64,000 bases of DNA, taken from contig CAZWQF010000001.1 of NCBI GenBank assembly GCA_964636285.1, positions 7,048-71,047 on the forward strand, given 5' to 3'. This document shows positions 44,015 through 62,590 of this stretch, one piece after another. This DNA is from an uncultured Candidatus Saccharibacteria bacterium (lineage in GTDB: Bacteria > Patescibacteriota > WWE3 > UBA101185 > 2-01-FULL-41-18). The notes under the pieces are model-generated. The model searched no databases and was not told where the DNA came from. It saw nothing but the letters and a program-made list of their open reading frames with translations. Made by a program: the position numbers and the translations under genes. Each line of letters starts with the position of its first letter. Positions within the stretch are counted from its first letter, which is position 1.

Positions 44015-44130
44015 TTTGAGGCCTCCTAGCCCTACTAAACCTATAGTAATTGTAAAATATCTGCCAAAATAAGTCAACTACTATGGGGCTAGTTGACTGG
44101 ATACGGTTCATATAGTTTAATAGCTTCGTT

Positions 44131-44283
44131 ATGCCAAAAAGAGTGTACCAACCAAAAAAGAAGAAGAGAGTCAGAACACATGGCTTTAAGATCAGAATGT
44201 CATCACCTGGCGGAAGAAATGTTCTTAAAAGAAGAAGAGCAAAAGGTAGAGTTCGCCTAACAGTGTCAAGACATTCCAAATGA
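44131..44283 (+). CDS. rpmH: 50S ribosomal protein L34
   Basis: Translated by hand: [50 protein letters not shown]; not in ORF track because under 60 aa. Confidence 0.9.
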
Positions 44284-46147: not shown

Positions 46148-46164
46148 ACCTAAAGTCTTAAAAT

Positions 46165-47292
46165 ATGAAATTTACCTGTCTCCAGGAAAATCTTGTCCGT
46201 GGGCTTTCTATTGTCAGCAAAGCAGTTGCTACAAGAGGTTCGCTTCCTGTTTTGTCTAACGTCCTTATTTCCGCGGTCGACGGTAGAGTTAAGCTTTCTT
46301 CAACAAATCTAGAAACCTCAATAACAACATGGATAGGAGCCTCTGTAGAAGAGGAGGGTGAAATAACAGTCCCATCAAAAGTTTTTCACGAATACGTTTC
46401 AAACATCCCCCCTTCGACAATAACAATTGAAGGAAGCGGAACAAATTTAAAGATCTCAAGTGACAAAGTTTCTTCAAAATTTGTAGGAATTGATGCATCT
46501 GAGTTTCCAAATATTGCAGCAGATGCAGATGAGGTTCACTTAACAATTGATCCAAAAGTTTTTGGCGACGCTGTCCTTGAAACTGCATTTGCTTCGGCAG
46601 CAGATGAGACAAGGCCGGTATTAACAGGCGTATTGTTAATTGGAAACGATGAGGGGTTGTACCTAGTTGGTGTTGATGGGTTTAGGCTTGCAGAAAGATC
46701 TGTAGCTTCAGAGTCCGGAAAAATTAAAAAAGAGTTTTCCGCAATTATTCCTGCAAAGATTCTCTTGGAGGTTGCTAGGCTTACGGCTTCGTTGAAAGAA
46801 CCACTAGAGGTGTCAGTTAACAAAGACAACACTCTTGTAGTGTTTAAGTCCGGCGACGTGGTTATTTCATCAAGGGTTATTGATGGAGATTTCCCTGCAT
46901 ACAAAGGACTTATTCCACATGTTGATACAAGAAGCGTTAAAGTTAAAATGGCCTCAAAGGATTTGGCAAGCGCCCTTAAACTTGCGAATGTATTTGCAAA
47001 AGACTCCGTAACTGTTGTGAGATTTAAGATAAGTAGTGATGACTCCGCAGTTTATATCCTTTCATCAAATTCGGAAGTAGGGGAAAACAGCGCAAAAATT
47101 GATGCTGAAGTTTCAGGTGGGGATTTGGAAATTGCATTTAATTCAAAGTACATTCTTGACGTTCTAAGTAACGTAAAATCTGACGAATTTATTTTTGAGT
47201 GTTCAGATAAAATTGGTCCTGGAGTGCCAGGGGTTTTAAGACCTTCAACTAGAGATAATCACCTTTACCTTATAATGCCCATGCAGTATTAA
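46165..47292 (+). CDS. dnaN: DNA polymerase III beta sliding clamp
   Basis: 375 aa, MKF..LQENL start and three-domain clamp architecture. Confidence 0.85.
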   Translation: MKFTCLQENLVRGLSIVSKAVATRGSLPVLSNVLISAVDGRVKLSSTNLETSITTWIGASVEEEGEITVPSKVFHEYVSNIPPSTITIEGSGTNLKISSDKVSSKFVGIDASEFPNIAADADEVHLTIDPKVFGDAVLETAFASAADETRPVLTGVLLIGNDEGLYLVGVDGFRLAERSVASESGKIKKEFSAIIPAKILLEVARLTASLKEPLEVSVNKDNTLVVFKSGDVVISSRVIDGDFPAYKGLIPHVDTRSVKVKMASKDLASALKLANVFAKDSVTVVRFKISSDDSAVYILSSNSEVGENSAKIDAEVSGGDLEIAFNSKYILDVLSNVKSDEFIFECSDKIGPGVPGVLRPSTRDNHLYLIMPMQY

Positions 47293-49304
47293 AAAATTGA
47301 TGAGACCCCATCGTTTGGCGCTTTTGCAACATCAGGTGTTGCAGGAGTTTGCATTTGTGCGCTTGAGACAGGCCCTGCATTTGAAGTTTGTTCTGTTGCC
47401 ACTTGAACGGGGGCTTGTGGCGCTGGTTGAGACTTTGGAATGTTGATTATTGGTTTGTACACTGCTTTTCCTAAAGTTGGCGTTGGTTCCGCTAGCGTAC
47501 CTTTTTCTCTTAACTTCAGCACATCAGTTGGCTTTGTTGTCACCAGTTTGTATTCTTCGTCAGAGGCCTCAACTTTCATTGCAACGTGATTGCTTCCTGC
47601 AAAGAACAAGCCTTCTCCAATTCCTGCGGATAATAGAAGCCTTTTTTCTCCTTCGGAAAGATAGAATACTTCTGCAAGCTTATCTATTGCAGCAGGGTGC
47701 TGTTTAAGGAGTACTTGAATGGACGAGTTTGTAATAATTGCCGTTCCATATTCGCTTGATAAAAAGTCTCCAACGTCCTGTGTAATTGTTGTAAGGCCAA
47801 GGAAATACTTTCTACATCTTTTTGCAATTCCGTAAAGGAACGTTGCCGAGTCTTTGTTCTGCATTAAGTACCAAGCCTCATCTACAAGCAAAATTCTCTT
47901 TCTTAAATCTCTCTTAATTCTTGTCCAAACAAAGTCCAGAATAATGTAAATTGCGATTGGTCTCAAAACATCTTCAAGTGATTTTGTGGAAAATACTGTA
48001 AATCTGCTTTCAAGGTCAATGTTCGATCTCTGGTCAAAAATTCCAGCAAGTGAACCTTTAATATATCTTTCAAGTCTTGACGCTAGACCTTTTGCTTCTG
48101 GCTCTTCCATTCCCAAAAGCACTTTATAAAGGTCTTCCATAATTGGAGGTTCTTTCTCTTTTTGTGTGACAGGGTCTGTGGTAATTCCCTTGATTCTGTA
48201 CGTTTCTACTAAGGCCTTATCCAAAAGAGACTCTTCAACATTTGTCAGTGTCCCGTAAATAATTTTAAAAAGCGTGTGCAGTGAAAGTATTTTTTGCCCA
48301 AGTTCGTTTTCACCTTCTACTGCAATTCCTGAAAGATCAAACGGATTAATTCTTGATGGCGAAGAGGAAGAGAACGAAATGTAGTTTCCTCCAACAGCTT
48401 CTGAGAGCCTTCTATACTCTTCTTCTGGGTCAACCACAATTATTTGTGCTCCAAAAACAAGTGATCTTAACGCTTCAAGTTTTACAAAGAACGATTTTCC
48501 AGCTCCGGCTTTTGCAAACACCACCATATTTGCGTTTTCCATTGAGAACCTATCAAAAATAATGAGCGAGCCGTTGTGCATGTTAACCCCGTACATAATG
48601 CCTTCGTTCTGAGTTAAGTCTGACGAGGTGAAGGGGAAAGTTGTAGCAAGGCTTGTTGTATCCATGTTTCTTGTAATCAAAAGTTTGTCTAGGCACAGCG
48701 GAATTGTAGATTGAAAAGCCTGCTCCATTTGAAGCGATGCTACTTTTGAGATTAAAAGAAGTGCTCCAAGAGTGGACTCAACTTTTTTTGTAATGTTGTT
48801 AAGTTCTTCAAGGCTGTCCGCCGGAATTGTTATATAAAATGAAAACTGGAAGAACCTCTCAATTCCTTTAACAAGCTGTTCCTGAAGTGACTGAGCGTCT
48901 TCAAGGGCTGCTCTAACTGCTGGGTCTACAACTTTTCCTCTTTCGGAATCTGTTTTTACCGTTGCTTCCATTTCCGCAATTTTTCTTCTGAGATCATCGA
49001 GAATACCTTTAGATTGCACTGGGTAGCAAAACATTGAAATATCAAGCGTGTGGTCAAAGTTGATGAGGGGAGATAGCCAGTTAGCTCCTACAAATCTTGG
49101 ATACCCTGACACAAACAAAGTTCTATAATACGAGTTTCCAATCCTAATATGAGTGAAGTCCACCTCAATACCTGAGGGCGCAATAATGTCTTTAACCGAA
49201 ACCATGCCTTGCGCAATTGTCTGCGCAGCTTTTTCAGCAGACTTATTCTGTGCGCTTGTTGTTTTTGCTTTATCCGATTTATCAAAAAGTTTAAAAATAT
49301 CCAT
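47289..49304 (-). CDS. type IV secretion ATPase VirB4/TrbE/TraC family, ATPase portion (start probably MDIFKLF at 49304, not 49406)
   Basis: Walker A AKAGAGKSFF, Walker B LLVDEAW, VirB4-family blocks; P/Q-rich C-terminal tail. Confidence 0.8.
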   Translation of the reverse strand: MDIFKLFDKSDKAKTTSAQNKSAEKAAQTIAQGMVSVKDIIAPSGIEVDFTHIRIGNSYYRTLFVSGYPRFVGANWLSPLINFDHTLDISMFCYPVQSKGILDDLRRKIAEMEATVKTDSERGKVVDPAVRAALEDAQSLQEQLVKGIERFFQFSFYITIPADSLEELNNITKKVESTLGALLLISKVASLQMEQAFQSTIPLCLDKLLITRNMDTTSLATTFPFTSSDLTQNEGIMYGVNMHNGSLIIFDRFSMENANMVVFAKAGAGKSFFVKLEALRSLVFGAQIIVVDPEEEYRRLSEAVGGNYISFSSSSPSRINPFDLSGIAVEGENELGQKILSLHTLFKIIYGTLTNVEESLLDKALVETYRIKGITTDPVTQKEKEPPIMEDLYKVLLGMEEPEAKGLASRLERYIKGSLAGIFDQRSNIDLESRFTVFSTKSLEDVLRPIAIYIILDFVWTRIKRDLRKRILLVDEAWYLMQNKDSATFLYGIAKRCRKYFLGLTTITQDVGDFLSSEYGTAIITNSSIQVLLKQHPAAIDKLAEVFYLSEGEKRLLLSAGIGEGLFFAGSNHVAMKVEASDEEYKLVTTKPTDVLKLREKGTLAEPTPTLGKAVYKPIINIPKSQPAPQAPVQVATEQTSNAGPVSSAQMQTPATPDVAKAPNDGVSSIF

Positions 49305-49305
49305 A

Positions 49306-50007
49306 TTATTCCTCAATAATTGCGGGTTCCACAATTGGAACTCCATAATCTTCAATTCCTGTTCTAATTCTCTGGTCATGAAGTGAGATTGGGTTGTACA
49401 CGTCAAAGAATAGCTCTACAAGCTCCTGTGTGGTCAGCTGTTTAGCTTTTATATTTAATCTAGCAAAGTCTCTGACTATTGAATCCCTCTTTGGGTACAG
49501 CTCAGTTTCTGCTGTCTTGATCGAACTGGGTACATCCACTTTAACTCTCTTTACTTTATTTCCCGAAAGAGTTTTTAAAAAGTCCAATGGCCCTCCATTA
49601 GGTGCAGCCATGATCATACCTGTTCCTGAAGGAATTGCTACGTAAAAGCTTTTGTCTAAAACTTCGTTCTTTTTAATAAGCTCCTGAACAAATTTTCTGT
49701 AAGCCTCTGCTTGAACTCTAAGAAGGGGATCCCTGATTTTATTTTCGATTGCTTGAACTTTATCTATATAGCTTGAAATATCAAGTTTCTTGCTCCTCAC
49801 TACAATTTGGATTGGATAAGTAAGCGAATTTAGTAACGAAGAGTACGCAGCAATAATTGCATCTTGTTCTACTTCGGATAAAAGGTCAAAGTTTACAGCG
49901 TTTGTTTTAAGTACAAGAACACAAGCCCCAGTTTTAAGAACAACTAGGTCTCTTGAAACTGTCTCAATCTCTAAATGATCTTGTGTGCTTTGTATAACTG
50001 CTGACAT
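49306..50007 (-). CDS. VirB4 N-terminal-domain-like protein (probably split from the downstream ATPase)
   Basis: 233-aa soluble ORF ending 2 nt before the probable VirB4 start; resembles CagE/TrbE N-domain. Confidence 0.45.
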   Translation of the reverse strand: MSAVIQSTQDHLEIETVSRDLVVLKTGACVLVLKTNAVNFDLLSEVEQDAIIAAYSSLLNSLTYPIQIVVRSKKLDISSYIDKVQAIENKIRDPLLRVQAEAYRKFVQELIKKNEVLDKSFYVAIPSGTGMIMAAPNGGPLDFLKTLSGNKVKRVKVDVPSSIKTAETELYPKRDSIVRDFARLNIKAKQLTTQELVELFFDVYNPISLHDQRIRTGIEDYGVPIVEPAIIEE

Positions 50008-50013
50008 ATTTGA

Positions 50014-52170
50014 TTAAAGTTTACCAATAAACTCTACTGGTGGTAATACCTCTCCTTTCACTTCAACACTTGCGGGCTCAAAAGTTTGTGGTATGTCCTC
50101 ATTCGGTTTTGTAACCTCAATTTTATACCTGCCGTTAGTAACCGGCGTTGTGATGCAGAATTGCCCAAGTTTGTTTGTTTTGAGTGCTCTTACCACATCC
50201 TCTTTTGAGTCTTTAATTATAACAACTGCACCTTCAACTAGCTTACCTTCTTTATCTTTCACTATTCCGTTGATCAGATTTGGTTGATTTGCAAACGAAG
50301 GGGCTTGAGCAAAATTTGCCGGTTTAGCCTCTATTGGCGCCTCTTTTATTGGTGGCGGGACTACCGGTTTTAAAATTACGGGCTGTGGTGTTTGCTCAGG
50401 TGCCTTTACTGATGCTGGGTCTGGTGTTGTTTCTGGTAGGTTTAATGGTTCAATCACAATCCCCTGATTTTTTGGTGGTTCTGGTGCTTTTTGTATTGGC
50501 TGTGGGATATCATACGTTTGCTTTTGTGTTTGCACCGTCTGATAAAGCCTCTGTTGAAGCTCGTTTATTTTTTGTTGCAGAGCAGAGATTTGAGTGTCTG
50601 CAACTTTCTTTTCATTCTGAAGTCTTAATAGCTCCATCTCAAATTTTTGCTTGTCGGCGGCACTGGAGTCCTGCATTTTTCTTTTGAGCTCTTCGATTTC
50701 TTTTGATAAATTATCGTTTGAGCTTTTTAGCTGGTTTGCTGCAGATTGGACTTCTTTTTTTGTTGCTTCTGTTTGAGTTGGTGTTTGAGATTTTAGATCT
50801 AGTTTGGCTCCAAGCTTAGCTTGCTGTACTCCTGCCTCTTTTTTAATTCGGTCAATAAGACCCATTAAATCTTTAGTCTTTTTTTCAAGATCTGAGTCAA
50901 ACTTTTGCTCTTCATTGACAGTGTTTAGGACTCTTTCGCCTCGAATGGGGAGAACCAGTTCACCTTGCTCTGCTGTCAGGTGTGTGAACCGCCTACCCGT
51001 TAGTCTGTCCGGAGTGATTGAGTTGTATGGTGTGTAAGTAATCTTTGGTTTACGGACGTTATCATTCACTCTGAATGCATTTGAGACTGCCGTTGGGGTT
51101 AGCTGAGTTTGGGATTTGAATTCTGGTTTTGGAGATTCTTTTGGCAAAATCTGAGGTTTTAGTTCAGGCTTTGAGGTTGCGGTCTGCTGAATTTGAGCCT
51201 GCACCTGAGGCTGTGTCCTAATTGGTTGCTGAGTCTGTGCTTGGGCAGGGGTGGGTTGCGCACTTACAGGGCTTGGAGTAGGCACGCTACTTTGCGTTTG
51301 TGTTGTTGCGGTTGGCTTTGGCATTGCGGGCTCCTTGCTAGCCATAGGTGGTTGCGATTGGGTTTGCTCTGCCAACTTTGGTTTAGGCTCCTGTAATTGA
51401 GGTTTTATTTCAGGTTTAACTTGAGGCGCTGGAGTTTGTGCTGGTGTTGTCTCCATTGCGTTTTCCTCTATGCCTTGAGGCTTGTTTTCTTGAAAGTTTT
51501 TGTTTATGGAGGGCTCTGTTCGAATTGGAGGTAGGCTTGTATCTTGAGCTAATGGGGTTGATGCAACGGGGGTATCAATAACAGATGTTTGCTGAGACTG
51601 GAACGAATGGTAAGGCTTAAAAAGCGTTGCCTGTTTTGTTGAAGCTTGAGCCTGGGTTGTAGTTGTACCCTCAAACGAGTCCCTGACTTTTTGTATGTAT
51701 TCGGCTTCTCTTTGTTCCATTGGGTCAAGAATGTGGTCGGTGACTTCTCTTTCAAGGTATTGTTCCAGTTTTCTTCGGCTTGCTGTTGGGGCAACAGCAA
51801 GCATTTCGTTTTTCAATTGATTTGCATTTTGGTATAGAAAATAGCTTGGAGGCTCAACCTCTTTTTTCCAGATTCGCTGAGTGGGGGAGTAAATGGCCAA
51901 AAAAAAGTTAACTACCCAAATGTCCATGCTTCTGTCTTGAATTGGGAGAAAGGCTACGGCAAGAGCAAGGCCAGCTACGCAGAGGGCTAGAGGGATGGCG
52001 ATGAACTTTGGAAGGCCTGAGGCAAAGGTTCCAAAAGCAAAAACAGCGCCTAGGACAAGATAGGCAAACTGTCTCATGGTCAGCTCTCCAATGACTTTAA
52101 ATTCCACCTGCATTATATTCTGTGGAACTGCATGTTGTTTCACACCTAGTGATACTTCAGAAATGGGCAT
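50014..52170 (-). CDS. T4SS-associated membrane protein: VirB3-like 2-TM N-terminus + P/Q/T-rich linker + coiled coil + C-terminal carboxypeptidase-regulatory-like beta-sandwich
   Basis: N-terminal pair of TM helices immediately upstream of VirB4 (VirB3 position); long low-complexity; C-terminal GIVKDKEGKLVEGAVVIIKD...GRYKIEVTKP CarbopepD_reg-like motif. Confidence 0.5.
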   Translation of the reverse strand: MPISEVSLGVKQHAVPQNIMQVEFKVIGELTMRQFAYLVLGAVFAFGTFASGLPKFIAIPLALCVAGLALAVAFLPIQDRSMDIWVVNFFLAIYSPTQRIWKKEVEPPSYFLYQNANQLKNEMLAVAPTASRRKLEQYLEREVTDHILDPMEQREAEYIQKVRDSFEGTTTTQAQASTKQATLFKPYHSFQSQQTSVIDTPVASTPLAQDTSLPPIRTEPSINKNFQENKPQGIEENAMETTPAQTPAPQVKPEIKPQLQEPKPKLAEQTQSQPPMASKEPAMPKPTATTQTQSSVPTPSPVSAQPTPAQAQTQQPIRTQPQVQAQIQQTATSKPELKPQILPKESPKPEFKSQTQLTPTAVSNAFRVNDNVRKPKITYTPYNSITPDRLTGRRFTHLTAEQGELVLPIRGERVLNTVNEEQKFDSDLEKKTKDLMGLIDRIKKEAGVQQAKLGAKLDLKSQTPTQTEATKKEVQSAANQLKSSNDNLSKEIEELKRKMQDSSAADKQKFEMELLRLQNEKKVADTQISALQQKINELQQRLYQTVQTQKQTYDIPQPIQKAPEPPKNQGIVIEPLNLPETTPDPASVKAPEQTPQPVILKPVVPPPIKEAPIEAKPANFAQAPSFANQPNLINGIVKDKEGKLVEGAVVIIKDSKEDVVRALKTNKLGQFCITTPVTNGRYKIEVTKPNEDIPQTFEPASVEVKGEVLPPVEFIGKL

Positions 52171-52343
52171 GGTATACCTCCCATTATAACTTGGTCAGGG
52201 TGGTTTTAGGAACTAACAAATGTTTTTAGGCTTGAGATGCAAAAATTGCTGTTTAGCCAAAAAAATTTATAGCCATGCCAAAACCTGTAATTATCAATAC
52301 GGCACTAATTTACAGCGAAACAGAGGATTCTACAGCTTTACGC

Positions 52344-52372
52344 TTGAGAAATCAAGCAACCTATAGTATAAT
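52344..52372 (+). promoter_or_regulatory. sigma-70-like promoter TTGAGA-17 nt-TATAAT for the GC-rich ORF at 52429
   Basis: Hexamers and spacing read directly; SD AAGGAGGGG 7 nt before ATG. Confidence 0.45.
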
Positions 52373-52428
52373 ATGCGTAACAAAAAACATTTATCTATTC
52401 ATGATACCTACAAAAGGAGGGGTACATC

Positions 52429-52917
52429 ATGAAAAGTATTTGGAACTTCATCAAGGCCATTCCCGGGAGGATCGTGCACCTAAGCGCAATTGCGGTCATC
52501 GCGATCTCGCTGAACGCAGCACGTCCACTGGTCCCATTTTTCATGAGCCAGCCCCACTGGGCTATCATGATCGGTGGGGCGCTTGCGTTCTTCGCGGGAT
52601 GGACGTTACGTTCCGCATCTATGGGTAACCTCTCCGGCAGGACGCTTGGAGTGGTTTCGGGAGTTTTGATCACGGGGTTCGCCCTTGGTTACAATTTCCC
52701 AAACATCCCTAAAGTACAAGGTGTTGGTGATTTGATCATCGCTACCGGGAGGTTTTTCCAAGCAATTCCGATGGCTGCTTGGAACTCCCTGGGTCTGATG
52801 CACCTAGACCCAATCTCCCTGCCGATCGACCCCGATTACCCCTTGAGGGACGCTATGACGGCGTTTCTATTCATTGCGTCAGGGGTGTTTGGGTCGTACG
52901 GGAGGAAAGGGGCCTAG
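52429..52917 (+). CDS. GC-rich (~55-58% GC) hypothetical polytopic membrane protein inside the T4SS-like locus
   Basis: ORF with strong SD; compositional outlier; followed by hairpin 52927-52985. Confidence 0.5.
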   Translation: MKSIWNFIKAIPGRIVHLSAIAVIAISLNAARPLVPFFMSQPHWAIMIGGALAFFAGWTLRSASMGNLSGRTLGVVSGVLITGFALGYNFPNIPKVQGVGDLIIATGRFFQAIPMAAWNSLGLMHLDPISLPIDPDYPLRDAMTAFLFIASGVFGSYGRKGA

Positions 52918-52926
52918 GCAAAATAA

Positions 52927-52985
52927 GGCGGGTTGGACGAAGATACTAGTTGTGTTTACACAGCCAAGTCTTTGTCCAGCCCGCC
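52927..52985 (+). terminator. GC-stem hairpin (ggcgggttggac...gtccagcccgcc) after GC-rich ORF
   Basis: 12-bp inverted repeat read directly, partial T-tract downstream. Confidence 0.45.
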
Positions 52986-53006
52986 TATTCGTTTCTAAGG
53001 TTTAAT

Positions 53007-54329
53007 TTATTTTTTCTTTGGCCCTTTTAATGCCTGATCAATCATTCCAGGTGCTTTTATTGCAAGACCGCCCATAATTAAAGTTATTGAAGGGCCTACA
53101 AAAGCTCTCATAGGTACGCTAACTAAGAGATTTGCTCCAGGGACCGTTGTACTTCCTGACCAGTCTGTACCTAAAGTTATTGCAGCTCCAAGCATTAAGC
53201 AGAAGAAAATTGACGCAAGGGCTAGTGATGATGAAAGTTGAGTAATAAACCAATCCTTTATTCTGCTTTCTTGGCCTGGTAGGGCTCCAATAGCAAAAAT
53301 GAGTGGTGCAAAAATGGTATACAGAACTATCTTGCACCAGTTAAATATAAAAACAAATAAAGAGATAATCAAAACTGCTAGGTAGACTATAACTGCAATA
53401 AGTAGAATAACTAGCCCCCCTAAGTCCGCCCAGATGCTGTTGTTTTCGCCAGCTTCCATTAAAGATCTAGTAAGAAATTCTGCATAACAGGTTGCATAGC
53501 TAGTGATATTTTGAATTGTGCTGGCACCAATCAAAGTTGGACATTGGGTTGATATGAACCCACCGCCACTAGTGAATGTATCCGGATTGATAGCATAAAG
53601 ACCTGCTTTTGTAGCAGGAATAATAAGCTGGGCAAACATGCTTCCTAATGGATATGAGAATGCAATTAGTACAGCACTAATTGCAATTCTTGGAACAGCC
53701 ATTTGTGCTGTCACTACAGTTTGAGCATCTATTTTTTGTCTTAAAACTATCATGATAGCTATGGCCATTACAAAAACCGCTAACATTCCATATGCAATGT
53801 TTCTAATCCCTCTCCATGCCCCCAGCACTGCTGCATACTGATTCAATGACCCTTCCTGAGCATATGCACTTCTAAAAACAATGGATTCCTCAGACGCGTT
53901 GTTAATAAAATACGCTAGATTTATGGGAGGAGGCGCCTCTGAAAAACCGTCAAAAGCTTGAGCAGTAAAGGCCATGAGGCTTCCATTTCTTCTGAGGTTC
54001 AGATTTGCCGATTCGGATCCTAAATGGAGCATTCTCAAAGAGCAAGAATCCCTATTCAAGAAGATTACATCAATTAACGCGTCGCTAGTGCAACCTATCA
54101 GGCCATATAATGGGGCATCAATACCCATTGCTGTGATCATTGACATTGTAGTGGACCTGATTGAAGTTTCCTCCTCAAAGAATTCTGAGATTCCCCTAAA
54201 TACATTTGTTGAAATTGAAAATCCATTATCTGCATTGGCAACTCTATAAGTTCCAACTACAAAAGTTATTACCGCAAGAAAAATAATCAAATATTTAATG
54301 TTTTTAAGTGTTTTTGCTTTACCTAACAT
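53007..54329 (-). CDS. VirB6/TrbL-like polytopic membrane protein
   Basis: 440 aa, signal/TM N-terminus, >=6 TM helices, position in T4SS-like cluster. Confidence 0.5.
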   Translation of the reverse strand: MLGKAKTLKNIKYLIIFLAVITFVVGTYRVANADNGFSISTNVFRGISEFFEEETSIRSTTMSMITAMGIDAPLYGLIGCTSDALIDVIFLNRDSCSLRMLHLGSESANLNLRRNGSLMAFTAQAFDGFSEAPPPINLAYFINNASEESIVFRSAYAQEGSLNQYAAVLGAWRGIRNIAYGMLAVFVMAIAIMIVLRQKIDAQTVVTAQMAVPRIAISAVLIAFSYPLGSMFAQLIIPATKAGLYAINPDTFTSGGGFISTQCPTLIGASTIQNITSYATCYAEFLTRSLMEAGENNSIWADLGGLVILLIAVIVYLAVLIISLFVFIFNWCKIVLYTIFAPLIFAIGALPGQESRIKDWFITQLSSSLALASIFFCLMLGAAITLGTDWSGSTTVPGANLLVSVPMRAFVGPSITLIMGGLAIKAPGMIDQALKGPKKK

Positions 54330-54412
54330 ATAAAAAATATACAGCTGTGTGTAAATTATAGCAAGTATCTGTTACTATTAAGTTAATTGTAGGTCTATAA
54401 TAACATAATACT

Positions 54413-57400
54413 ATGGCACCAATATTTAAAGCGGGGTATTACCCTGGAGATAAGCCAATAAGAAAAAACCCCATCCAGCCTGTTGAAAACCTAGACCCTT
54501 TTATGGAAGCAGCTATTAATGCTATTTCATTCGATCGGGATGCATTAGGGCTTCCTAATCGAATGGCAACTCTTCTTGAAAAGGACTATAGAAATGGGTT
54601 TGCCATTAGGTATGGTATCAGGGATCAGAATTATGTAGATGACAATATTAACAGAAGCATTAACGCAGGGCTTGCTGGAAGCGACCTTTCAATTGAGGAG
54701 GAATATAATGAGCTTCCAGGCGTTAGAGGGGCAAAGATTAACTTAGATCCAGAAACTATTGCAAAAGTTGGAGCTGGCGGTGTTGTCTCAAATACATTTA
54801 AAAGCATGCTTGATGCAGGATTTGCATTCAAGGACTTTTCGCTCAAGGCAGAGCTATATGGATTATGGGATCCGCTCTTAAACCCAGGAGTCTCATCCGA
54901 TTCTGTTCGGGCTGGTATGAGCCTGTCCTCTAGTGATTACATAAAAAGGTATCAGCCTGGAGTGACAGGTAAAATTTTGACACAACGTGATTTTTCAAAT
55001 GTAGATTCCCTAAATTCATCAATACGAGCGTATGTGCTCTCAAGCGGATCGGCCGTGGAGGAGCAGGCGTCTTTTACACAGGTAAAATATTTTTATTTTC
55101 AGTCTTTTAGGCAGGCATTTGAAAATAGTCCAGAAATTGCAAATATTGATGCCGATATTTTAACTTCAGATGCAAAATCTAGGCAATACGTTACTGATAT
55201 TTCAACTCTTACATCAACACTAGCAACAACGTCCGATCCTGCTACAAGGGCTGTATTATCACAACAGCTTGTACAAGCACAGGCTAATTTGGCAGGAGAG
55301 CAGTCAAAAGCGGCTAATTTACAATCTCTGAAGGCAGAGGCTGATGATTTAAAGCAGCTCTTTAGTGGAGTTAGAACTCCTGAAGACTTAGTCAAAGACG
55401 CAAGGAAACAGAATCCAAAGGCTGGATTTAATATAAAAAAACTAAGGGCTAACGAGAGAAGGTTGATGGATAACTTTTGGAAGGCTTCGGTTCATGGAAA
55501 AAATACCTCCATTACAAGAATGGCTGGAATCATGGGAGATAGGCGGCTTATTGCATGGAGCAGACTTATAGATTATAGAGAACGCGTTTCGGAAACCAGT
55601 GAGGTTATAGATGCAATTGCAAAAGGTGAGTTTTTTCAGCAATTTATTTGGAAAAAGTATGTCCTAAAAAGATTACCTTGGATAACACCAACATACGCAT
55701 TCTCAAAATTTTTTACAAACCCGGGAGACTTCTTTTGGAGAGCCTTTGTTAATGGGAAAATACCGTTGCCATTTACTGAGGCAACACTTCCTTTTTTTAA
55801 AATTCCATTTGTAACAGGGTTGTTTAATAGGTTTGGTGCGCTCGCTGACAGGCTTGTTGGGTGGGTGTCAGATCTTATAGTTAAAAGATTTGCTAAGGTA
55901 ATCAATTTGTTTGGTGGCAATGTTATTAAATCAGCTTTTAGTAAGATAAGTGGTTGGTTATATGGTGTTGGGGCAGGTTCTGGGGTTGGTTTACCCGCGG
56001 TTGTTGTTGCGGCTATAACCCAATATTTAGGAGAAAAAATTTTTGGTTTATTTAAATCCATATTTGATGGCGACTTTTTTGAGTACTTGGAGAAGCTTCA
56101 AGCAGAGGCTGCCCGGTTGGTCAGATTTTTATTTGGAGTAGTGCTACTGCTCATCAGTTCTTGCCTAGTCTTTGTTACAATTGCTACTTCAATCCTATTC
56201 CTTCCTTTTTCAGGAATGATGGTTCAGGACTATGGGTCAGGAGGAGGGGTAGAAGAGACTGACGTTGATTGTCCATTCGTAGATGAAAGCGAGCTTCCAA
56301 GAGATGCTAATGGCGTGAGACTTGATAATGTTAAGCCTCTTGAAGATATGATAAACGCATTAACAAATACATATGCTAATCCTAAGAGATCTCCCATGGG
56401 TGTAGGTACAGCTAACGAAGACAATATAAGGAAATGCTATGGCTACATTATTGCAAGGGCACTGCAGACGGCGAATGATCCTGCTATTGCTTTGGCTATT
56501 TGGATTGAAGAGACGGGTGCAAGCAATTATGAAGTTTATAACTTCCCCATTGATGATTTTGGATGCGGTAGGCCCATAGAATCCAATAACTTTATGGATC
56601 AACTTGAATGTTTCTTAAGATTACAAACTGCATATGCTACAAAACCAAGCCATGCAGAGTGTAGAGCTACAGAACCTTCAAATACCGAGCTTATTGTGCA
56701 TGAGTGGGGGCAGATATTTGCTTGTGGTGATTTAGCGTGTAGAGAGGGTAGGGCATATGATTTTTCTTGCTTGGCTGTGTGCGGTACCAATAAGACAGCC
56801 CCAGAATGTATAGACGGCACGTTGTGGTTTGATAATGTAAACACAATTTATTCGGCTGTATCAATTGGGGACAAAACTTTGGATTTAGATTGTATTTTAA
56901 CGGGCTCTACAATAAGATGGGATGACACTTGTAAACAGGGCTCAAGAATTAATGTTGATATACGAGGGGTGACAGGATTACTTGGACAAAACCTGCCTAA
57001 CTTTTTTAGGCGAATAGGGTATAAGGAAGTAATTTCTGATTATGATGACTACATTATACAGTGCTACGAAACCAGAGTAACTTATAACACAGGTTGTCCT
57101 CTTGCCTCCGGTAATTATCTGCATTGTGGTTTGGATTTAGTTGGAGATACTGTGGATGGAATTTATTCGGTGGAGGGTAAGGATGTTCGATCTCCATATC
57201 GTGGGACTGCCGTAGTGGATACTGTAGGTTATGATGCCGCAGGGTATGGAAATTATGTTGTCCTTGAGATTTCTGGTGATGGGGGAGATGATGACTCCAA
57301 TGAGGACTTCTTATATATTTTAGTTGGGCATTTAATAGATGGTTCTATAGGGGTATCCGTTGGAGAGCAGGTGGCATATAATGATTTTATCGGTCGAGTA

Positions 57401-57565
57401 GGGTCTACAGGTCACTCTACAGGGCCTCATGTGCATTATGAGATCAGATCAGGGGGAAGGTCTGCTGCTTATCAAGTTAATCCCTGTTACGTGGTGGCCT
57501 TCAGTGGGGAGTCCTGTCCTGGGACGACATTTGGCTCAAGTTGCTCGACTGCAATGTTAGAATAA
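54413..57565 (+). CDS. 1050-aa T4SS-associated cell-wall hydrolase: central lysozyme-like region + C-terminal M23 (LytM) metallopeptidase
   Basis: C-terminal HxxxD...HSTGPHVHYEIR M23 motifs; central ...AIALAIWIEETGASNYEV... glycosidase-like block; internal TM segment. Confidence 0.65.
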   Translation: MAPIFKAGYYPGDKPIRKNPIQPVENLDPFMEAAINAISFDRDALGLPNRMATLLEKDYRNGFAIRYGIRDQNYVDDNINRSINAGLAGSDLSIEEEYNELPGVRGAKINLDPETIAKVGAGGVVSNTFKSMLDAGFAFKDFSLKAELYGLWDPLLNPGVSSDSVRAGMSLSSSDYIKRYQPGVTGKILTQRDFSNVDSLNSSIRAYVLSSGSAVEEQASFTQVKYFYFQSFRQAFENSPEIANIDADILTSDAKSRQYVTDISTLTSTLATTSDPATRAVLSQQLVQAQANLAGEQSKAANLQSLKAEADDLKQLFSGVRTPEDLVKDARKQNPKAGFNIKKLRANERRLMDNFWKASVHGKNTSITRMAGIMGDRRLIAWSRLIDYRERVSETSEVIDAIAKGEFFQQFIWKKYVLKRLPWITPTYAFSKFFTNPGDFFWRAFVNGKIPLPFTEATLPFFKIPFVTGLFNRFGALADRLVGWVSDLIVKRFAKVINLFGGNVIKSAFSKISGWLYGVGAGSGVGLPAVVVAAITQYLGEKIFGLFKSIFDGDFFEYLEKLQAEAARLVRFLFGVVLLLISSCLVFVTIATSILFLPFSGMMVQDYGSGGGVEETDVDCPFVDESELPRDANGVRLDNVKPLEDMINALTNTYANPKRSPMGVGTANEDNIRKCYGYIIARALQTANDPAIALAIWIEETGASNYEVYNFPIDDFGCGRPIESNNFMDQLECFLRLQTAYATKPSHAECRATEPSNTELIVHEWGQIFACGDLACREGRAYDFSCLAVCGTNKTAPECIDGTLWFDNVNTIYSAVSIGDKTLDLDCILTGSTIRWDDTCKQGSRINVDIRGVTGLLGQNLPNFFRRIGYKEVISDYDDYIIQCYETRVTYNTGCPLASGNYLHCGLDLVGDTVDGIYSVEGKDVRSPYRGTAVVDTVGYDAAGYGNYVVLEISGDGGDDDSNEDFLYILVGHLIDGSIGVSVGEQVAYNDFIGRVGSTGHSTGPHVHYEIRSGGRSAAYQVNPCYVVAFSGESCPGTTFGSSCSTAMLE

Positions 57566-58506
57566 TGAACTTTATGAATTTTATGGATCAAACAAGAGTA
57601 CTTTTAGGTGATCTGTTAGGTACAAAAAAAGTATTCATACTTATATTCATCTTAATCCTGTCAGTAGCTGTAATTTCTGCATTTAGGTACACATCTTATA
57701 TTGAAAGAAAAGTGGTTGAAGACAGATCTCTTGAGATAGCATCTGCCCAGTTTTCGGAAGCATTGAAAAAAAAAGCCCCTCTTGGGTTAAAGGCTAAAAA
57801 TTTAGTAATAGGAGGAAATTTCACACAAGATCATATCCAAGAAATAAATAATGGTAGTTATGTCATGAAGTACTCCTTAATGGATCCAACTAAAATGGCA
57901 GGCGTGCTTAAGTTGAGGCATGTCTCTTCAAGTAATGTTTTTTTTCTTGCAGAGGGTAGCGGGTCACTGGAGGATTTTAGGTCGGATTATGAAGCTTATC
58001 TTAATTCAGCTGTAGGATCAGATGCAAAAAATGTTAAGTTTGAAGTGAAAGATACCTCTGTTCCTGGTATTAAGATTTATGAGGAGCGGAATGTTTTTGA
58101 GCTTAAAGAGTATACCTTACATGTTAATGGGTCTCCTGTTTATCAACTAGACTATGTTAATCATATTACGGTATACAGAGAGTCAGAAGGCTCAGAAATC
58201 TTTTATGTTAAAATGCCTCCTTTCTTTCCTCAGCCTAATGTTGAGCTGATTAAAAAAGATTTTGTTTCCGGAGTATATAACATGCAGCCGTTTATTCCTT
58301 TGGACCCTTCTCTTAGTAGCTATATTTACAGGGAGCTTCCAAAATTCTCAGTTAGGGATTTTAAAATTATTGATACATCTGCAAGTAGAGCCTTCTTTTT
58401 TGATAATTCTTTAGGTTATATGCTTCCTGTTTTAACAAAAGAGGTGATTTATTTAAGATCTGAGGATGTTAAAAATCCAAACTATTTATTTGTGTACTTT
58501 GATTAA
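57541..58506 (+). CDS. hypothetical bitopic membrane protein (VirB8-like topology)
   Basis: N-terminal TM + ~270-aa extracytoplasmic domain, T4SS locus context. Confidence 0.35.
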   Translation: MLDCNVRIMNFMNFMDQTRVLLGDLLGTKKVFILIFILILSVAVISAFRYTSYIERKVVEDRSLEIASAQFSEALKKKAPLGLKAKNLVIGGNFTQDHIQEINNGSYVMKYSLMDPTKMAGVLKLRHVSSSNVFFLAEGSGSLEDFRSDYEAYLNSAVGSDAKNVKFEVKDTSVPGIKIYEERNVFELKEYTLHVNGSPVYQLDYVNHITVYRESEGSEIFYVKMPPFFPQPNVELIKKDFVSGVYNMQPFIPLDPSLSSYIYRELPKFSVRDFKIIDTSASRAFFFDNSLGYMLPVLTKEVIYLRSEDVKNPNYLFVYFD

Positions 58507-58508
58507 TA

Positions 58509-60542
58509 CTATTCTTTAGGGGTTTCAATTGGAAACGACGATAGTCTAGATATACATTCTTTAGCTGCAGTGACCGTTCCAAGACCCTCGACACCATATG
58601 GCGTCGGTACGTCTGAGTTTCGAATGTTCGCTTTTGTAGTTGTAGTACCTATACCCCCTATACTTTGTAATGGAGTTATTGGGCTGGAAAGAGAGTCGCA
58701 AAGTACTCCACTCACAGCTCCAAGCTCCTTAGCTCTTGGAAGTTTAACATTTGCCATAGAATTGAATGCTTTTTGTGTACTACATCCTGGCGCTTGCGGA
58801 TCGCTTTGGCAGTTAATAATATCAATAAATTGAGAAAATGATGCAGTAAAACCTCCTTCAAGACATCTTCCGTCTGAGTCTTTTCCTCCTGTGCACTCAC
58901 ATTCCTGTCCAAAAAGATGCACATTATAAACATTACCTTTTGGCTTTTGTTTTGTTTGTACCTCACTGTCTGGCGTAGTGACAGTTGAAGCAATTTTGGT
59001 CATATTTGTGATTGTTGATACAGGTGAAAAGGAGCCTCCTCTCAGATTAACACTAGTAATATGTCTATACTCATCAATTCCCGAACCTGGGGAGCACCCA
59101 TATCCTGAGCAGCTTCCGTTGGGATCCACACCTTCTCCTGCTATACTTGGGGTTAGTTCAGCTCTGTCGGGATCAATATCTTTAAGTCTATAGTACGGAA
59201 AAAATTCTGGTTCAAATGAGGTTTCATTAAACTCAAAGCTAAGTTCTTGTTGTGCAATATACATTGGAGGTCTAAAGTTTCTAGCAGATACTTTAGCTCC
59301 ACTATTGTCATAACAAATGTCAGGATTCTCAGAATATAGTTGTAGTACTTGCTTTTTTAGTTCTTCTGGATTTGAAGTTTTGATTAATCCTCCTCCGCAA
59401 GCTCCCTGATTCATCCCACGGAATCTAGCGTTGATGTCTCTTATATCGTCACATGAAGGAGCAAGACCATCTTTTGTGAAAGCAGATGGGTCGCATCCAA
59501 GAGCTGTGCTTGTACCTTCAACAAAAGCAGCTCTGTCGGTTGTTAAATCATCAGGGGTGACTGTGGCACCAGATACGTATGCTACAAGCGCTTGAGCGCA
59601 CATAGCTGGGTTTCTTAAACAAGAAAAGCCTGCATTAAGTATTGGGATTGCATTTCTCCAGAGGTAATCCACTGGGGTCTTATCAAGCTGGTTTATCTGA
59701 TTTTCACATGTATTTTCATAATCGGTTTTATCTACCAGTTGTCTCATACATACATCGTTTTCTTCACAGAAGCACTGTTCGTTTGTACACCTTGTAGCCC
59801 CACTTATATATATCGGAGGGATAGTGACGTCCTTTGTTATTACTCCAGTTTCATCCTGCCACACAATTCCTTTTAATACTTTAATTTCCTTACCACAAAA
59901 AACCCCTATAAACAGGGGTTCTTCAGGTAAATCTGAAATCTTGTACTCACCGCGAGGGCTTTTATTTCCCGTGGATAATGTAGAGTTGCTTTCGGTATAT
60001 GTGTATCTTCTGGTAGCCTTGTATTTCCCAGACTTATTGGCAAGATAGGGATCTTCTATCCAGGCAATCGTAGCACCTATGAGCGGTTTGATTTTTCGCT
60101 TAGCAAGAGGTATCGAGGATTCTTCCTGGGTTGCTATTTCTCCCTCATCAATTGCGTATATTTCTCCTAGTACAGAATGTTCTCCTCTTTTTGAAGGTCT
60201 CCTTTGACATGTTGATTTGTGCTTGGCCAAATCACACGGTGCCCCCTCTTCATCACAATCTGGATGGTTGTTGTCCTCATTATCACAAGTTGATGGGTCG
60301 TCTTGGATAGTCTGACATCTACCAATGTCCCCTCCATTTTCAGCTACGCATCCTCTATGACATGCACCGTTTGCTCTGTTTTCGCAAACAGGTGCGGTGC
60401 TAGAACAATTTTGAGCATACACATTATCCTGACTGTTACATGCAAAAAACAAGTTCATCAAAATAAATATTGAGAGTGTTGTTAATCTGTGCATGAATTT
60501 TTTCATACTGTGTTTAAAATTATTGAGTGAATGGGTCTCCAT
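58509..60542 (-). CDS. large secreted Cys-rich protein (677 aa), putative adhesin/ectodomain
   Basis: Signal peptide, >40 Cys in CxxC/CxC spacing, no TM elsewhere. Confidence 0.5.
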   Translation of the reverse strand: METHSLNNFKHSMKKFMHRLTTLSIFILMNLFFACNSQDNVYAQNCSSTAPVCENRANGACHRGCVAENGGDIGRCQTIQDDPSTCDNEDNNHPDCDEEGAPCDLAKHKSTCQRRPSKRGEHSVLGEIYAIDEGEIATQEESSIPLAKRKIKPLIGATIAWIEDPYLANKSGKYKATRRYTYTESNSTLSTGNKSPRGEYKISDLPEEPLFIGVFCGKEIKVLKGIVWQDETGVITKDVTIPPIYISGATRCTNEQCFCEENDVCMRQLVDKTDYENTCENQINQLDKTPVDYLWRNAIPILNAGFSCLRNPAMCAQALVAYVSGATVTPDDLTTDRAAFVEGTSTALGCDPSAFTKDGLAPSCDDIRDINARFRGMNQGACGGGLIKTSNPEELKKQVLQLYSENPDICYDNSGAKVSARNFRPPMYIAQQELSFEFNETSFEPEFFPYYRLKDIDPDRAELTPSIAGEGVDPNGSCSGYGCSPGSGIDEYRHITSVNLRGGSFSPVSTITNMTKIASTVTTPDSEVQTKQKPKGNVYNVHLFGQECECTGGKDSDGRCLEGGFTASFSQFIDIINCQSDPQAPGCSTQKAFNSMANVKLPRAKELGAVSGVLCDSLSSPITPLQSIGGIGTTTTKANIRNSDVPTPYGVEGLGTVTAAKECISRLSSFPIETPKE

Positions 60543-62588: not shown

Positions 62589-62590
62589 AG

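Follow-up and report, generated by a model that had tools for sequence, protein, structure and literature searches.

Why does a single GC-rich gene, read in the opposite direction, stand between two genes of a type IV secretion system (T4SS) in a bacterial genome of 39% GC? This question is raised by positions 52344-52986 of a 64-kb stretch of contig CAZWQF010000001.1 (64,000 nucleotides, referred to below as the window), which belongs to a WWE3 (Katanobacteria) bacterium from within the candidate phyla radiation (CPR). The segment holds an open reading frame (ORF) of 162 codons, which an initial annotation had described as an inserted membrane-protein gene from a high-GC donor. Our analysis leads to a partly different answer. 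The segment is probably an autonomous cassette, resembling the morons of phages, that was inserted into a T4SS gene junction; this is an anatomical and evolutionary statement, and the function of the product is treated apart from it. New here are a replaceable, promoter-anchored slot in the T4SS locus, a signal of mRNA structure at synonymous sites and a family of cassettes with the promoter element CCYATAGT.

Composition and Anatomy of the Cassette

The mean GC content of the window is 39.2% (400-nt windows: mean 0.392, standard deviation 0.040) and not 36-38% as first estimated. The ORF 52429-52917 on the plus strand (162 aa) has a GC content of 0.544, with 0.509, 0.472 and 0.650 at the first, second and third codon position, respectively. 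The initial annotation rightly called it GC-rich, while its figure of 55-58% is slightly too high. The GC content of third codon positions (GC3) is 0.342 +/- 0.097 over the 67 tabulated ORFs of the window, outliers counted in. For the flanking T4SS genes GC values of 0.39-0.44 and GC3 values of 0.30-0.36 were obtained, compared with 0.544 and 0.65 for the target gene. A score resembling the codon adaptation index, built from 34 ordinary window genes, placed the target far below the mean of these genes (z = -7.6). The comparison of GC, GC3 and codon adaptation proposed in the initial annotation thus marks composition and codon usage of the target as foreign to this genome.

The following elements were recognized in the unit:

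52344-52372, plus strand: sigma-70-type promoter with the -35 box TTGAGA (52344-52349), a 17-nt spacer and the -10 box TATAAT (52367-52372); 11 of 12 consensus positions
52360-52367, plus strand: family element CCTATAGT, abutting the -10 box
52373-52428, plus strand: 5' untranslated region (UTR), containing the Shine-Dalgarno sequence
52414-52422, plus strand: Shine-Dalgarno sequence AAGGAGGGG, 8 nt from its GGAGG core to the ATG at 52429
52429-52917, plus strand: coding sequence (CDS) of the 162-aa ORFan, a predicted membrane protein with four transmembrane (TM) segments, GC3 0.65 and a hyper-structured mRNA
52926-52986, both strands: GC-rich 19-bp hairpin (inverted repeat) with a nested apical hairpin, between the convergent cassette and VirB6-like gene

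The TTGAGA-17-TATAAT promoter, the Shine-Dalgarno sequence and the downstream GC-stem hairpin had all been pointed out before and were found again at these positions. The left boundary given at the time, 52275, marks the start of a spurious overlapping ORF.

The 5' UTR can form a modest hairpin with arms at 52395-52405 and 52426-52436, an inverted repeat of -13.2 kcal/mol (z -2.0), in which the start codon is paired and the Shine-Dalgarno sequence is exposed in the loop. Much stronger is the hairpin at 52926-52986. On the plus strand it reaches -42.9 kcal/mol (z -7.3), contains two G.U pairs and is followed by a U-rich tail; on the minus strand it reaches -32.5 kcal/mol (z -5.1) and is followed by UUAUUUUG. 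Since it folds on both strands and carries the UUAUUUUG tail, it could terminate the cassette and the convergent VirB6-like gene alike and is likely a bidirectional intrinsic terminator. The 21 nt at 52906-52926 (AAAGGGGCCTAGGCAAAATAA), which form the end of the cassette region, and 53007-53027 at the end of the VirB6-like gene are 76% complementary and flank the terminator hairpin. This complementarity may be due to chance or may be a trace of the insertion event.

Insertion at the VirB6-PrgI Junction

The cassette is enclosed by two genes of the minus strand, and the stretch between it and the left gene carries a possible promoter:

50014-52170, minus strand: PrgI/VirB3-like N-terminal domain (PF12666, E 2e-8), long P/Q-rich linker and CarboxypepD_reg domain (PF13620, E 3.8e-8); left flank of the slot
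53007-54329, minus strand: VirB6-like polytopic protein of 440 aa; forms the right flank of the slot and is convergent with the cassette
52171-52343, minus strand: stretch upstream of the PrgI-domain gene, which the insertion has parted from the VirB6-like gene
52355-52327, minus strand: candidate divergent promoter for the PrgI-domain gene, TTGATT-17-TAGAAT (9 of 12 consensus positions, weak), overlapping the cassette -35 box

These flanks agree with the earlier placement of the gene between a VirB3-like fusion protein and VirB6, the latter being called VirB6-like because of its position, its topology and a weak fold match. The 440-aa protein has no Pfam match and no sequence match in the PDB. 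Its structural model has a predicted local distance difference test score (pLDDT) of 55 overall and of 70-85 in the TM core. When this model was submitted to Foldseek, all matches with a probability above 0.8 were TrwI/VirB6 of R388 (E 0.25-0.65). The best of them was 7o3v_F with a probability of 0.96 and a TM-score of 0.52, at a weak E-value. The PrgI/VirB3-fusion protein varies in length from 555 to 890 aa in the four genomes that were aligned; its P/Q/T-rich low-complexity linker is very variable, the N-terminal motif KQHAVPQNIMQVEFK is invariant in all four and the C-terminal CarboxypepD_reg domain is conserved.

Related loci were retrieved by anchoring on VirB4 and PrgI; a search of genome contigs with the VirB6-like protein as sole query gave no match. 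The VirB4 relatives place the window in WWE3/Katanobacteria-type Patescibacteria. The closest VirB4 proteins are those of L006, the metagenome-assembled genome H41-bin102_1 (JBBTST01) from Hainich groundwater (80-82% identity), and of L007, WWE3 RIFCSPHIGHO2_01_FULL_40_23 (80%). The gene order M23 - VirB6-like - PrgI - TraC-like - VirB4 is conserved across the relatives. In L002, whose VirB4 is 79% identical, it continues to dnaN, and the gap between the VirB6-like gene and PrgI amounts to 106 bp. This gap measures 44-158 bp in 12 of the 22 related genome loci in which both genes were recognized, including L002 and L007, and 45-62 bp in 7 further metagenome loci. Consequently, the gene is, by comparison with its close relatives, an insertion whose orientation opposes that of the T4SS genes, as had been suspected from the window alone.

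At the remaining 10 of the 22 junctions other cargo was found:

L013:312-1009: HEPN/nucleotidyltransferase pair
L075:7176-7802: HEPN/nucleotidyltransferase pair
L003:6086-8260, L082:5515-7749, L083:3583-6951 and L061:3433-6982, opposite strand: ORFs without Pfam domain

The ORFs on the opposite strand encode 724-1122 aa, and large unannotated ORFs occur in L003, L061, L075, L082 and L083. Judged by these gene orders, the VirB6-PrgI junction is a recurrent landing site, an insertion hotspot across Patescibacteria lineages. A divergent small hydrophobic ORF upstream of PrgI was found only in the window and in L006 among about 100 loci surveyed; two apparent further cases, L108 and L109, proved to be antisense artefacts within a membrane-protein gene (z about 0).

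With its likely bidirectional terminator, the cassette divides the VirB6 to PrgI operon in two, so that PrgI, TraC and VirB4 would need a promoter within 52171-52343, which may be the weak candidate listed above.

A Sister Cassette behind the Same Promoter

In L006 the VirB6-PrgI gap is enlarged to 605 bp and contains a cassette in the same slot and orientation as the target:

L006:6071-6451, minus strand: ORF of 126 aa with four predicted TM segments; GC 0.493 and GC3 0.543 in a locus of 0.403 GC

The 15-nt promoter core AACCTATAGTATAAT is identical in both cassettes and otherwise unique among 85 loci, and promoter identity extends over 15-17 nt in total. The 13-mer CCTATAGTATAAT occurs once in the window and is present, among the 85 fetched loci, in none but L006 and L001, the latter being the window itself. 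No remnant of it was detected in the empty junctions of L002, L007 and L086, and near-matches in relatives sit in unrelated contexts. The L006 cassette has the Shine-Dalgarno sequence AAAGGAGG, a small 5' hairpin comparable to that of the target, with the Shine-Dalgarno sequence split between loop and 3' arm, and a final hairpin with U-runs on both strands, predicted to be a bidirectional terminator.

The proteins behind this common promoter are entirely different. The 162-aa and the 126-aa protein gave a BLASTP E-value of 2.2, an identity of 18% and a global alignment score of z -0.3 against shuffles. For comparison, VirB4 of the window and of L006 are 82% identical, the PrgI N-termini 62% and the VirB6-like proteins 37%. 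At the level of nucleotides and RNA, too, similarity is confined to the promoter/Shine-Dalgarno block, and no clear shared RNA architecture was recognized. Both proteins are alike in their predicted topology, with the N-terminus inside, four TM segments, a large outside loop between TM3 and TM4 and a charge distribution following the positive-inside rule.

Records of the L006-type cassette comprise 13 contigs, which come from several Hainich samples and from one unrelated run. Eight of these contigs were fetched; they are nucleotide-identical over more than 1.4 kb although they stem from various samples and assemblers. The gene always adjoins whichever of the PrgI and VirB6-like genes the contig reaches, and the five longest contigs span both flanks. 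In the T4SS slot, as far as the two sister genomes' sequences tell, the promoter has been kept and the coding sequence is wholly different. A conserved promoter in front of different coding sequences means that the slot behaves as a promoter-anchored accessory position, which would be either replaceable or extremely fast-evolving.

A Family of Promoter-ORFan-Terminator Cassettes

The initial annotation had listed five further GC-rich outliers in the window. They are real, although heterogeneous in GC content: 0.463 for 103-348, 0.605 for 965-1513, 0.543 for 1758-2048, 0.474 for 17080-17577 and 0.497 for 43854-44014, the last being a 53-aa ORF with two TM segments at 43854-44015. The starts at 348, 1513 and 2048 are correct ATGs preceded by Shine-Dalgarno sequences. 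The proposed grouping holds for four of the five, which share with the target the CCYATAGT element and an autonomous anatomy; 17080-17577 lacks the family promoter. These four members are built as follows:

1653-2122, minus strand: member A; promoter CCTATAGT-TTTACA-17-TATAAT (2122-2086), Shine-Dalgarno sequence AGGAG
2048-1758, minus strand: CDS of member A, 96 aa with two CxxC pairs, GC3 0.62; terminator 1699-1653
872-1591, minus strand: member B; promoter CCTATAGT-TTGACT-17-TATAAT (1591-1555), Shine-Dalgarno sequence AAGGAG
1513-965, minus strand: CDS of member B, 182 aa, GC 0.60, GC3 0.82
926-872, minus strand: terminator of member B, with the outer stem ACGGGCAC..GTGCCCGTTTTGTT in common with A and C
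47-432, minus strand: member C; promoter CCCATAGTAC-TTGACG-17-TACAAT (432-394), Shine-Dalgarno sequence AGGAG
348-103, minus strand: CDS of member C, 81 aa, GC3 0.45; terminator 92-47, 94% identical to that of A
43793-44087, minus strand: member S; promoter CCCATAGTAG-TTGACT-17-TACAAT (44087-44049), Shine-Dalgarno sequence AGGAGG; divergent from rpmH-rnpA
44015-43854, minus strand: CDS of member S, 53 aa, 2 TM, GC 0.49; hairpin 43835-43793

Members A, B and C are a tandem series of autonomous minus-strand units at the left end of the window. Member S has a CCCATAGT promoter of its own, its mRNA is moderately structured, and the size and hydrophobicity of its product recall type I toxins. A 141-aa ORF at 43854-44279 is an artefact running antisense through rpmH. 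The target and L006 cassettes carry CCTATAGT as well, set against the -10 box.

The motif CCYATAGT occurs at 9 sites in the window, compared with 2.64 +/- 1.67 expected, and none of 100 shuffles reached this number; 7 of the 9 sites lie at cassette promoters. Two composite promoter patterns were then defined, CCYATAGT-N0-3-TTKACN-N15-19-TANAAT and TTKNNN-N8-12-CCYATAGTATAAT. In 1.79 Mb, comprising the window and the loci of its relatives, they occur 6 times, each time followed by a Shine-Dalgarno sequence and an ORFan with a GC3 of 0.45-0.82, above the ORF mean of 0.34. By these sequence features, the four outliers and the target form one family of promoter-ORFan-terminator cassettes with at least five members in the window and one in L006. 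Common to the members are the promoter element and, in part, the terminators; their ORFans are unrelated to one another and have an atypical, mostly GC-rich codon usage.

Some other features of the window lie near these units or are likewise GC-rich. A group I intron (RF00028, 103.6 bits) at 2734-2957 on the minus strand interrupts the anticodon loop of tRNA-Thr(UGU), which extends over about 2685-3068; ARAGORN with its intron option reports a 309-nt intron, and the GC-rich cassette array lies directly downstream of this tRNA. On its other side are two minus-strand ORFans, 3218-3445 and 3464-3769, with elevated GC (GC3 0.43 and 0.56) and without a CCYATAGT promoter; a strong hairpin at about 3171-3215 follows the former. 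The 793-nt segment 17578-18370 is poor in ORFs, has a GC content of 0.51 and gives fold z values of -5.7 (minus strand) and -3.6 (plus strand). At the end of the minus strand a perfect hairpin (about 17700-17630) precedes U7, and a possible promoter TTGACA-16-TAAACT lies near 18320 on the same strand. No Rfam match at E < 0.1 and no tmRNA were found in it; it is a candidate large non-coding RNA of about 660 nt. Finally, 18880-18937 and 34442-34499 are inverted copies of each other (93% over 58 nt; hairpin GC 0.61-0.68; -55 and -41 kcal/mol per 90 nt), each between convergent genes. They form a family of REP-like or terminator repeats that differs from the terminators of the cassettes.

Coding Status and Topology of the 162-aa Protein

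Within the target the ORF fills the unit from promoter to terminator, with Shine-Dalgarno sequence and ATG correctly placed. Dinucleotide shuffling of the GC-rich segment produced an ORF of 162 codons or more, whichever the strand, with P = 0.007. The equivalent value for the 126-aa ORF of L006 is 0.008, which gives a joint chance of about 6e-5 before strand, Shine-Dalgarno sequence or hydrophobicity is demanded. Hydrophobicity is specific to the annotated frame, whose grand average of hydropathy is +0.63, against values between -0.02 and -1.42 in the five other frames. At second codon positions T makes up 37%, and the GC3-GC2 periodicity was matched by only 3 of 5000 shuffles. An Rfam 15 scan of 52200-53100 yielded no match, either at the gathering threshold or at E <= 10, and a known structured RNA was thus rejected. 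By these sequence criteria the target is a real coding gene, neither a chance ORF nor a member of a known RNA family.

Four TM helices are predicted at residues 15-31, 44-60, 72-88 and 139-155, together with an amphipathic segment at 102-118. K and R residues cluster at the N-terminus, in the loop 61-71 and at the C-terminus, and the acidic, Pro-rich region 89-138 is predicted to lie outside. The predicted topology has both termini inside and satisfies the positive-inside rule, in agreement with the initial description as a membrane protein.

Apart from itself, the protein had no homologue among 5.8e9 proteins searched by word index, nor among 1.84e9 representatives searched exhaustively with HMMER phmmer. 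It matched nothing in Pfam at E <= 10, PHROGs, NCBIfam, PADLOC or a plasmid tblastn. The cassette proteins as a group gave no match at the curated thresholds of Pfam, PHROGs, NCBIfam or PADLOC, member B (queried as ORF 965-1531) had no homologue among the 5.8e9 proteins, and the plasmid tblastn was negative with both queries, the target and ORF 965-1531. The 90% cluster of the target protein is a singleton, as are all cassette proteins in exact-cluster look-ups. A T4SS pilin of the VirB2 type (PF18895, PF04956) was rejected as an identity for the target, which has no Pfam match at E <= 10, whereas the genes 60520-60981 and 61293-62588 match PF18895. AlphaFold2, run without an alignment, reached a pLDDT of 53, and the model was not used for a fold search.

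mRNA Structure at Synonymous Sites

When compared with dinucleotide shuffles, the CDS of the target folds with z -4.1 to -5.0 and its whole transcript with z -9.2. The corresponding values for L006 are -5.7 for the ORF and -8.6 for the whole unit. For 49 other window genes 0.12 +/- 1.04 was obtained, with a minimum of -2.47. A synonymous permutation, in which codons were swapped among identical amino acids so that protein and codon usage were held fixed, gave z -4.2 (0 of 100) and -4.1 (0 of 150) for the target and -5.6 (0 of 100) for the L006 ORF. Six control genes, including GC-rich outliers and TM-rich T4SS genes, stayed between -1.8 and +0.8. By family member, the z values of this permutation are -4.1 for the target, -5.6 for L006, -3.2 (0 of 150) for A, -2.4 to -2.5 for S, -1.2 for B and 0.0 for C. 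In a sliding fold scan, which with 10 shuffles per window is indicative only, the CDS segments 52521-52610 and 52821-52910 are among the ten strongest 90-nt folds of the window.

The fold signal of the target is strand-symmetric and based on Watson-Crick pairs. The sense strand of L006 gains more from G.U pairs (minimum free energy -154 vs -120 kcal/mol; 19 vs 8 G.U pairs), and structure at the RNA level is therefore favoured for L006. We also asked whether the GC3 excess is limited to paired positions. Native and permuted sequences split alike, and the unpaired GC3 of the target is still 0.50. Since this test gave no discrimination, we do not claim that the structure causes the GC excess. There is no support for assembly of the ORF from dispersed GC-rich palindromic repeats (REP/RPE-like): a search of the masked window, 64 kb of this genome, and of 1.8 Mb from related loci turned up no second copy of any part of either cassette body.

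Taken together, a strong promoter, rare codons, a paired start codon and a folded mRNA suggest controlled, probably low translation or a long-lived message.

The T4SS Neighbourhood

Apart from the two flanking genes, the following T4SS genes were identified in the window by Pfam:

47289-49406, minus strand: VirB4/TraG P-loop ATPase
49306-50007, minus strand: TraC-like protein
54413-57565, plus strand: M23 peptidase
60520-60981 and 61293-62588, minus strand: T4SS pilins (PF18895)

The cluster is adjoined by dnaN, a KhpB-like gene, yidC and rnpA. The neighbourhood is a monoderm-type, chromosomal, origin-proximal T4SS of an ultra-small WWE3 (Katanobacteria) CPR bacterium. An MPF-FATA-like, chromosomal and origin-proximal arrangement agrees with a published survey of Patescibacteria T4SSs, which reports no accessory gene at the VirB6-PrgI junction and describes these systems as chromosomal, with conjugation not demonstrated and their role unsettled (PMC12102498).

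Alternative Explanations

How else could such a gene have come to lie in this slot? It might be a native, very fast-evolving T4SS accessory gene, the ORFs of the window and of L006 being diverged orthologues that were lost in L002 and L007, and its GC3 and structure having evolved in place. The two cassettes do coincide in slot, orientation, promoter core and Shine-Dalgarno sequence, and both products are predicted to have four TM segments, the N-terminus inside and a loop outside between TM3 and TM4. Next to them, the VirB6-like protein has itself fallen to 37% identity, and selection in place could yield the synonymous-site structure seen in both ORFs. Against such a descent, the protein similarity is at random level (18%, global z -0.3) despite promoter identity over 15-17 nt. 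Codon usage lies 7.6 standard deviations off that of the genome, with unpaired third positions GC-enriched too. Furthermore, the same promoter element fronts unrelated ORFs at unrelated loci, which fits cassette exchange better than vertical divergence. We regard evolution in place as unlikely, but as an explanation to be kept in mind.

It is distinctly less probable that the unit is a selfish addiction or toxin-type module, in which a membrane-damaging protein is silenced by a tightly folded mRNA in the manner of type I toxins or holins and which sits in an insertion hotspot. The HEPN/nucleotidyltransferase pairs in L013 and L075 and the other cargo in 10 of 22 loci are compatible with this idea. 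So is the likeness to type I toxin mRNAs such as hok and tisB, namely a hydrophobic membrane product encoded by an unusually structured mRNA, to which a paired start codon and rare codons are added; member S, with 53 aa and 2 TM, has the size of such a toxin. With 162 aa and four TM helices in ordered topology, however, the target exceeds type I toxins in size by far, neither an antisense RNA nor a partner antitoxin is evident, the Shine-Dalgarno sequence is exposed in a loop and not sequestered, and PADLOC was negative.

GC-rich islands in AT-rich genomes are a classic signature of non-coding RNA, and the main product of the cassette could in principle be a structured RNA of about 600 nt, non-coding or with a dual function, the ORF being incidental or secondary. 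The whole-transcript z values of -9.2 in the window and -8.6 in L006, the two CDS segments among the ten strongest 90-nt folds in 64 kb and the G.U gain of the L006 sense strand (-154 vs -120 kcal/mol; 19 vs 8) would suit such an RNA. Nevertheless, both cassettes have a Shine-Dalgarno sequence, an ATG and an ORF filling the unit, for which the joint chance is about 6e-5, and both show frame-specific TM patterning and codon periodicity. Rfam gave no match even at E <= 10, the two would-be RNAs share neither sequence nor obvious architecture, and the signal of the target is strand-symmetric. An RNA with an accidental ORF is hence improbable.

Slightly less probable still is the explanation offered by the initial annotation, according to which the GC-rich genes were picked up singly from a high-GC donor, the bacterial host of this epibiont. 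GC3 values of 0.65 for the target and 0.82 for 965-1513, with a codon-position pattern typical of genes from GC-rich genomes, are what such a transfer would leave, and the gene is an insertion relative to its relatives. But the searches of 5.8e9 and 1.84e9 proteins returned no homologue of the target in any taxon, all sequenced high-GC bacteria included, and the taxonomy of best hits, by which a donor was to be recognized, came out empty for both the target and ORF 965-1531. Gene-by-gene capture leaves unexplained why unrelated ORFans have one promoter element in common; the AT-rich promoter element and the terminators common to the cassettes would not be brought along by independent host genes. 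It also leaves unexplained why an identical promoter core at the same slot of the sister genome L006 fronts a different ORF. Moreover, the lineage has no known host.

An assembly artefact was considered as well. Two Logan contigs of SRR12762304, an independent assembly, correspond to window positions 46014-52372 and 52343-62762 with 100% identity. They overlap by 30 nt (k-1) at 52343-52372, which is the cassette promoter from -35 to -10, the 30-mer CTTGAGAAATCAAGCAACCTATAGTATAAT. A branch of the de Bruijn graph at CTTGAGAAATCAAGCAACCTATAGTATAAT is expected if the sample contains the promoter in at least two sequence contexts, and the break is suggestive in this respect; L006-type Logan contigs pass straight through the equivalent promoter. 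A chimera, in which a GC-rich fragment of another organism was joined into the contig, might be suspected from the abrupt GC steps and from this break 86 nt upstream of the ATG, but is very unlikely, since one independent contig holds both GC transitions and the junction to the VirB6-like gene, the break is a mere k-1 overlap in AT-rich promoter sequence between two contigs identical to the window, promoter and Shine-Dalgarno sequence are placed precisely for the ORF, and a sister cassette of the same architecture is identical in 8 fetched contigs of 13, some spanning both junctions.

The reading as an inserted autonomous cassette, which we prefer, also has to face several observations that weigh against it. 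Its promoter and terminator were called by consensus match alone. The hyper-structure is graded over the family, falling to z -1.2 in B and 0.0 in C. The high GC3 of the target has no explained source, its unpaired third positions being at 0.50 GC. No mobility machinery was found. Dispersed copies of the cassette body are absent both from the 64 kb of the window and from 1.8 Mb of its relatives' loci, and the GC-rich ORFs near tRNA-Arg and tRNA-Thr are not accompanied by att-like direct repeats of tRNA 3' ends. As to a vehicle, there was no PHROG match, the terminator module is absent from IMG/VR, where no matching cassette was found either, and the plasmid tblastn with the target and 965-1531 was negative. 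Judged from 64 kb of the genome, the CCYATAGT family could instead be a native regulon using one promoter element. The slot has no more than two known independent occupants. The structure predicted for the target by AlphaFold2 (pLDDT 53) is unusable. No relaxase was found among the window proteins scanned against Pfam, nor any sign in the window that this T4SS conjugates. Two promoter plus Shine-Dalgarno matches in IMG/VR are one jumbo-phage sequence with a 10-codon ORF and no GC island behind it and were discarded as generic.

Comparison with Known Systems

Phage morons are the closest parallel. The HK97 gene 15 product is a small inner-membrane exclusion protein which is encoded in the structural operon and blocks DNA entry (PMC3594210; Cumby, Davidson & Maxwell 2012). 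Like such morons, the target has a predicted promoter and terminator of its own, a GC content different from its flanks (0.544 vs 0.39-0.44) and a position between genes that are adjacent in relatives, within the structural operon of a DNA-translocating machine; like gp15, it is predicted to encode a small inner-membrane protein. Unlike phage morons, it resides in a chromosomal T4SS operon beside dnaN, yidC and rnpA and not in a phage or prophage, and on this one count it departs from the class. A further difference is that several cassettes share a promoter element and terminators and are shifted towards high GC with strong mRNA structure.

The exclusion proteins TraS of F, Eex of SXT/R391 and YddJ of ICEBs1 are small, located at the membrane or surface and directed against the cognate VirB6 homologue or ConG; they are poorly conserved, encoded in the transfer gene cluster and occur as specificity variants between close relatives (10.1101/2021.01.25.428195). 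The target similarly is a small, hypervariable, predicted four-TM protein directly beside a fast-evolving VirB6-like gene, but it shows no sequence or profile similarity to these proteins, and its slot is empty in L002 and L007.

Integron gene cassettes come to mind because of unrelated ORFs in the same orientation, imperfect hairpin ends and a conserved promoter before variable content. In contrast to integron cassettes every unit here has its own promoter and Shine-Dalgarno sequence, there is just one cassette in the T4SS slot, and the hairpins, with their U-tails, resemble intrinsic terminators and not attC sites. By inspection, only 1 of 6 boxes in the terminators of A, B and C fits the attC boxes RYYYAAC/GTTRRRY, namely the 5' box ATTCAAC of B; no 3' end fits GTTRRRY, and the target hairpin is unrelated to these terminators. 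No integrase was found among the neighbour proteins scanned against Pfam, a scan that did not extend to integrases over the whole window. As the attC boxes fail and each unit has its own promoter, we reject an integron.

Proposed Mode of Action

In our reading, the cassette consists of a near-consensus sigma-70 promoter with CCYATAGT, a strong Shine-Dalgarno sequence, the CDS of a predicted four-TM inner-membrane ORFan and a likely bidirectional hairpin terminator. Such cassettes may come from an unsampled source and spread or recombine via the promoter and terminator modules that they have in common. The extreme folding of the mRNA and the rare codons might jointly throttle or stabilize expression from the strong promoter, and the product could act as a strain-specific accessory membrane protein at or beside the T4SS channel.

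Among the conceivable roles of the product, that of an exclusion or self-protection factor like TraS, Eex, YddJ or the HK97 gp15 moron is the most plausible, entry exclusion being the nearest functional precedent for such a protein beside a VirB6 homologue; in itself this role is unlikely, and it is argued from analogy alone. The unrelated cassette proteins beside VirB6-like proteins of 37% identity come from two genomes only. L002 and L007 lack the gene and run the same T4SS without any cassette, which counts against an exclusion-like role.

More broadly, the cassettes could be a portable class of some WWE3/CPR genomes, not described before and often with RNA structure encoded at synonymous sites, that is swapped at shared boundary modules, the copy between VirB6 and VirB3 being a swappable strain-specific determinant of T4SS behaviour; we put this forward tentatively. 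Equally tentative is what that copy might set, for example kin exclusion, self-protection or host-range recognition in an epibiotic contact machine. If the cassettes were portable in this sense, the Logan break at the promoter 30-mer would reflect co-existing strains with different cassettes behind the same promoter.

Biological Significance

Few machines have been demonstrated to be essential to Patescibacteria living as epibionts, and the T4SS is one of them (PMC12102498). Next to its VirB6-like channel subunit lies a slot for a hypervariable membrane protein, a concrete candidate determinant of T4SS strain or host specificity. Thanks to the conserved promoter, sequence data suffice for finding this slot in further genomes. 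Judged computationally, the two members in the T4SS slot, target and L006, provide some of the clearer examples of selection acting on mRNA structure through synonymous sites.

As a rule, islands of ORFans are AT-rich. To find, in a genome of 39% GC, a family of cassettes that have GC-rich ORFans and a promoter element in common runs counter to this pattern. Should the target turn out to be just another hypothetical membrane protein of one lineage, the result would keep its use: the GC anomaly is not the product of misassembly, nor does it testify to gene transfer from host to epibiont. CPR genomes are thought to be streamlined and poor in mobile elements; should the cassettes prove portable, they would constitute a new route of gene flux in these genomes.

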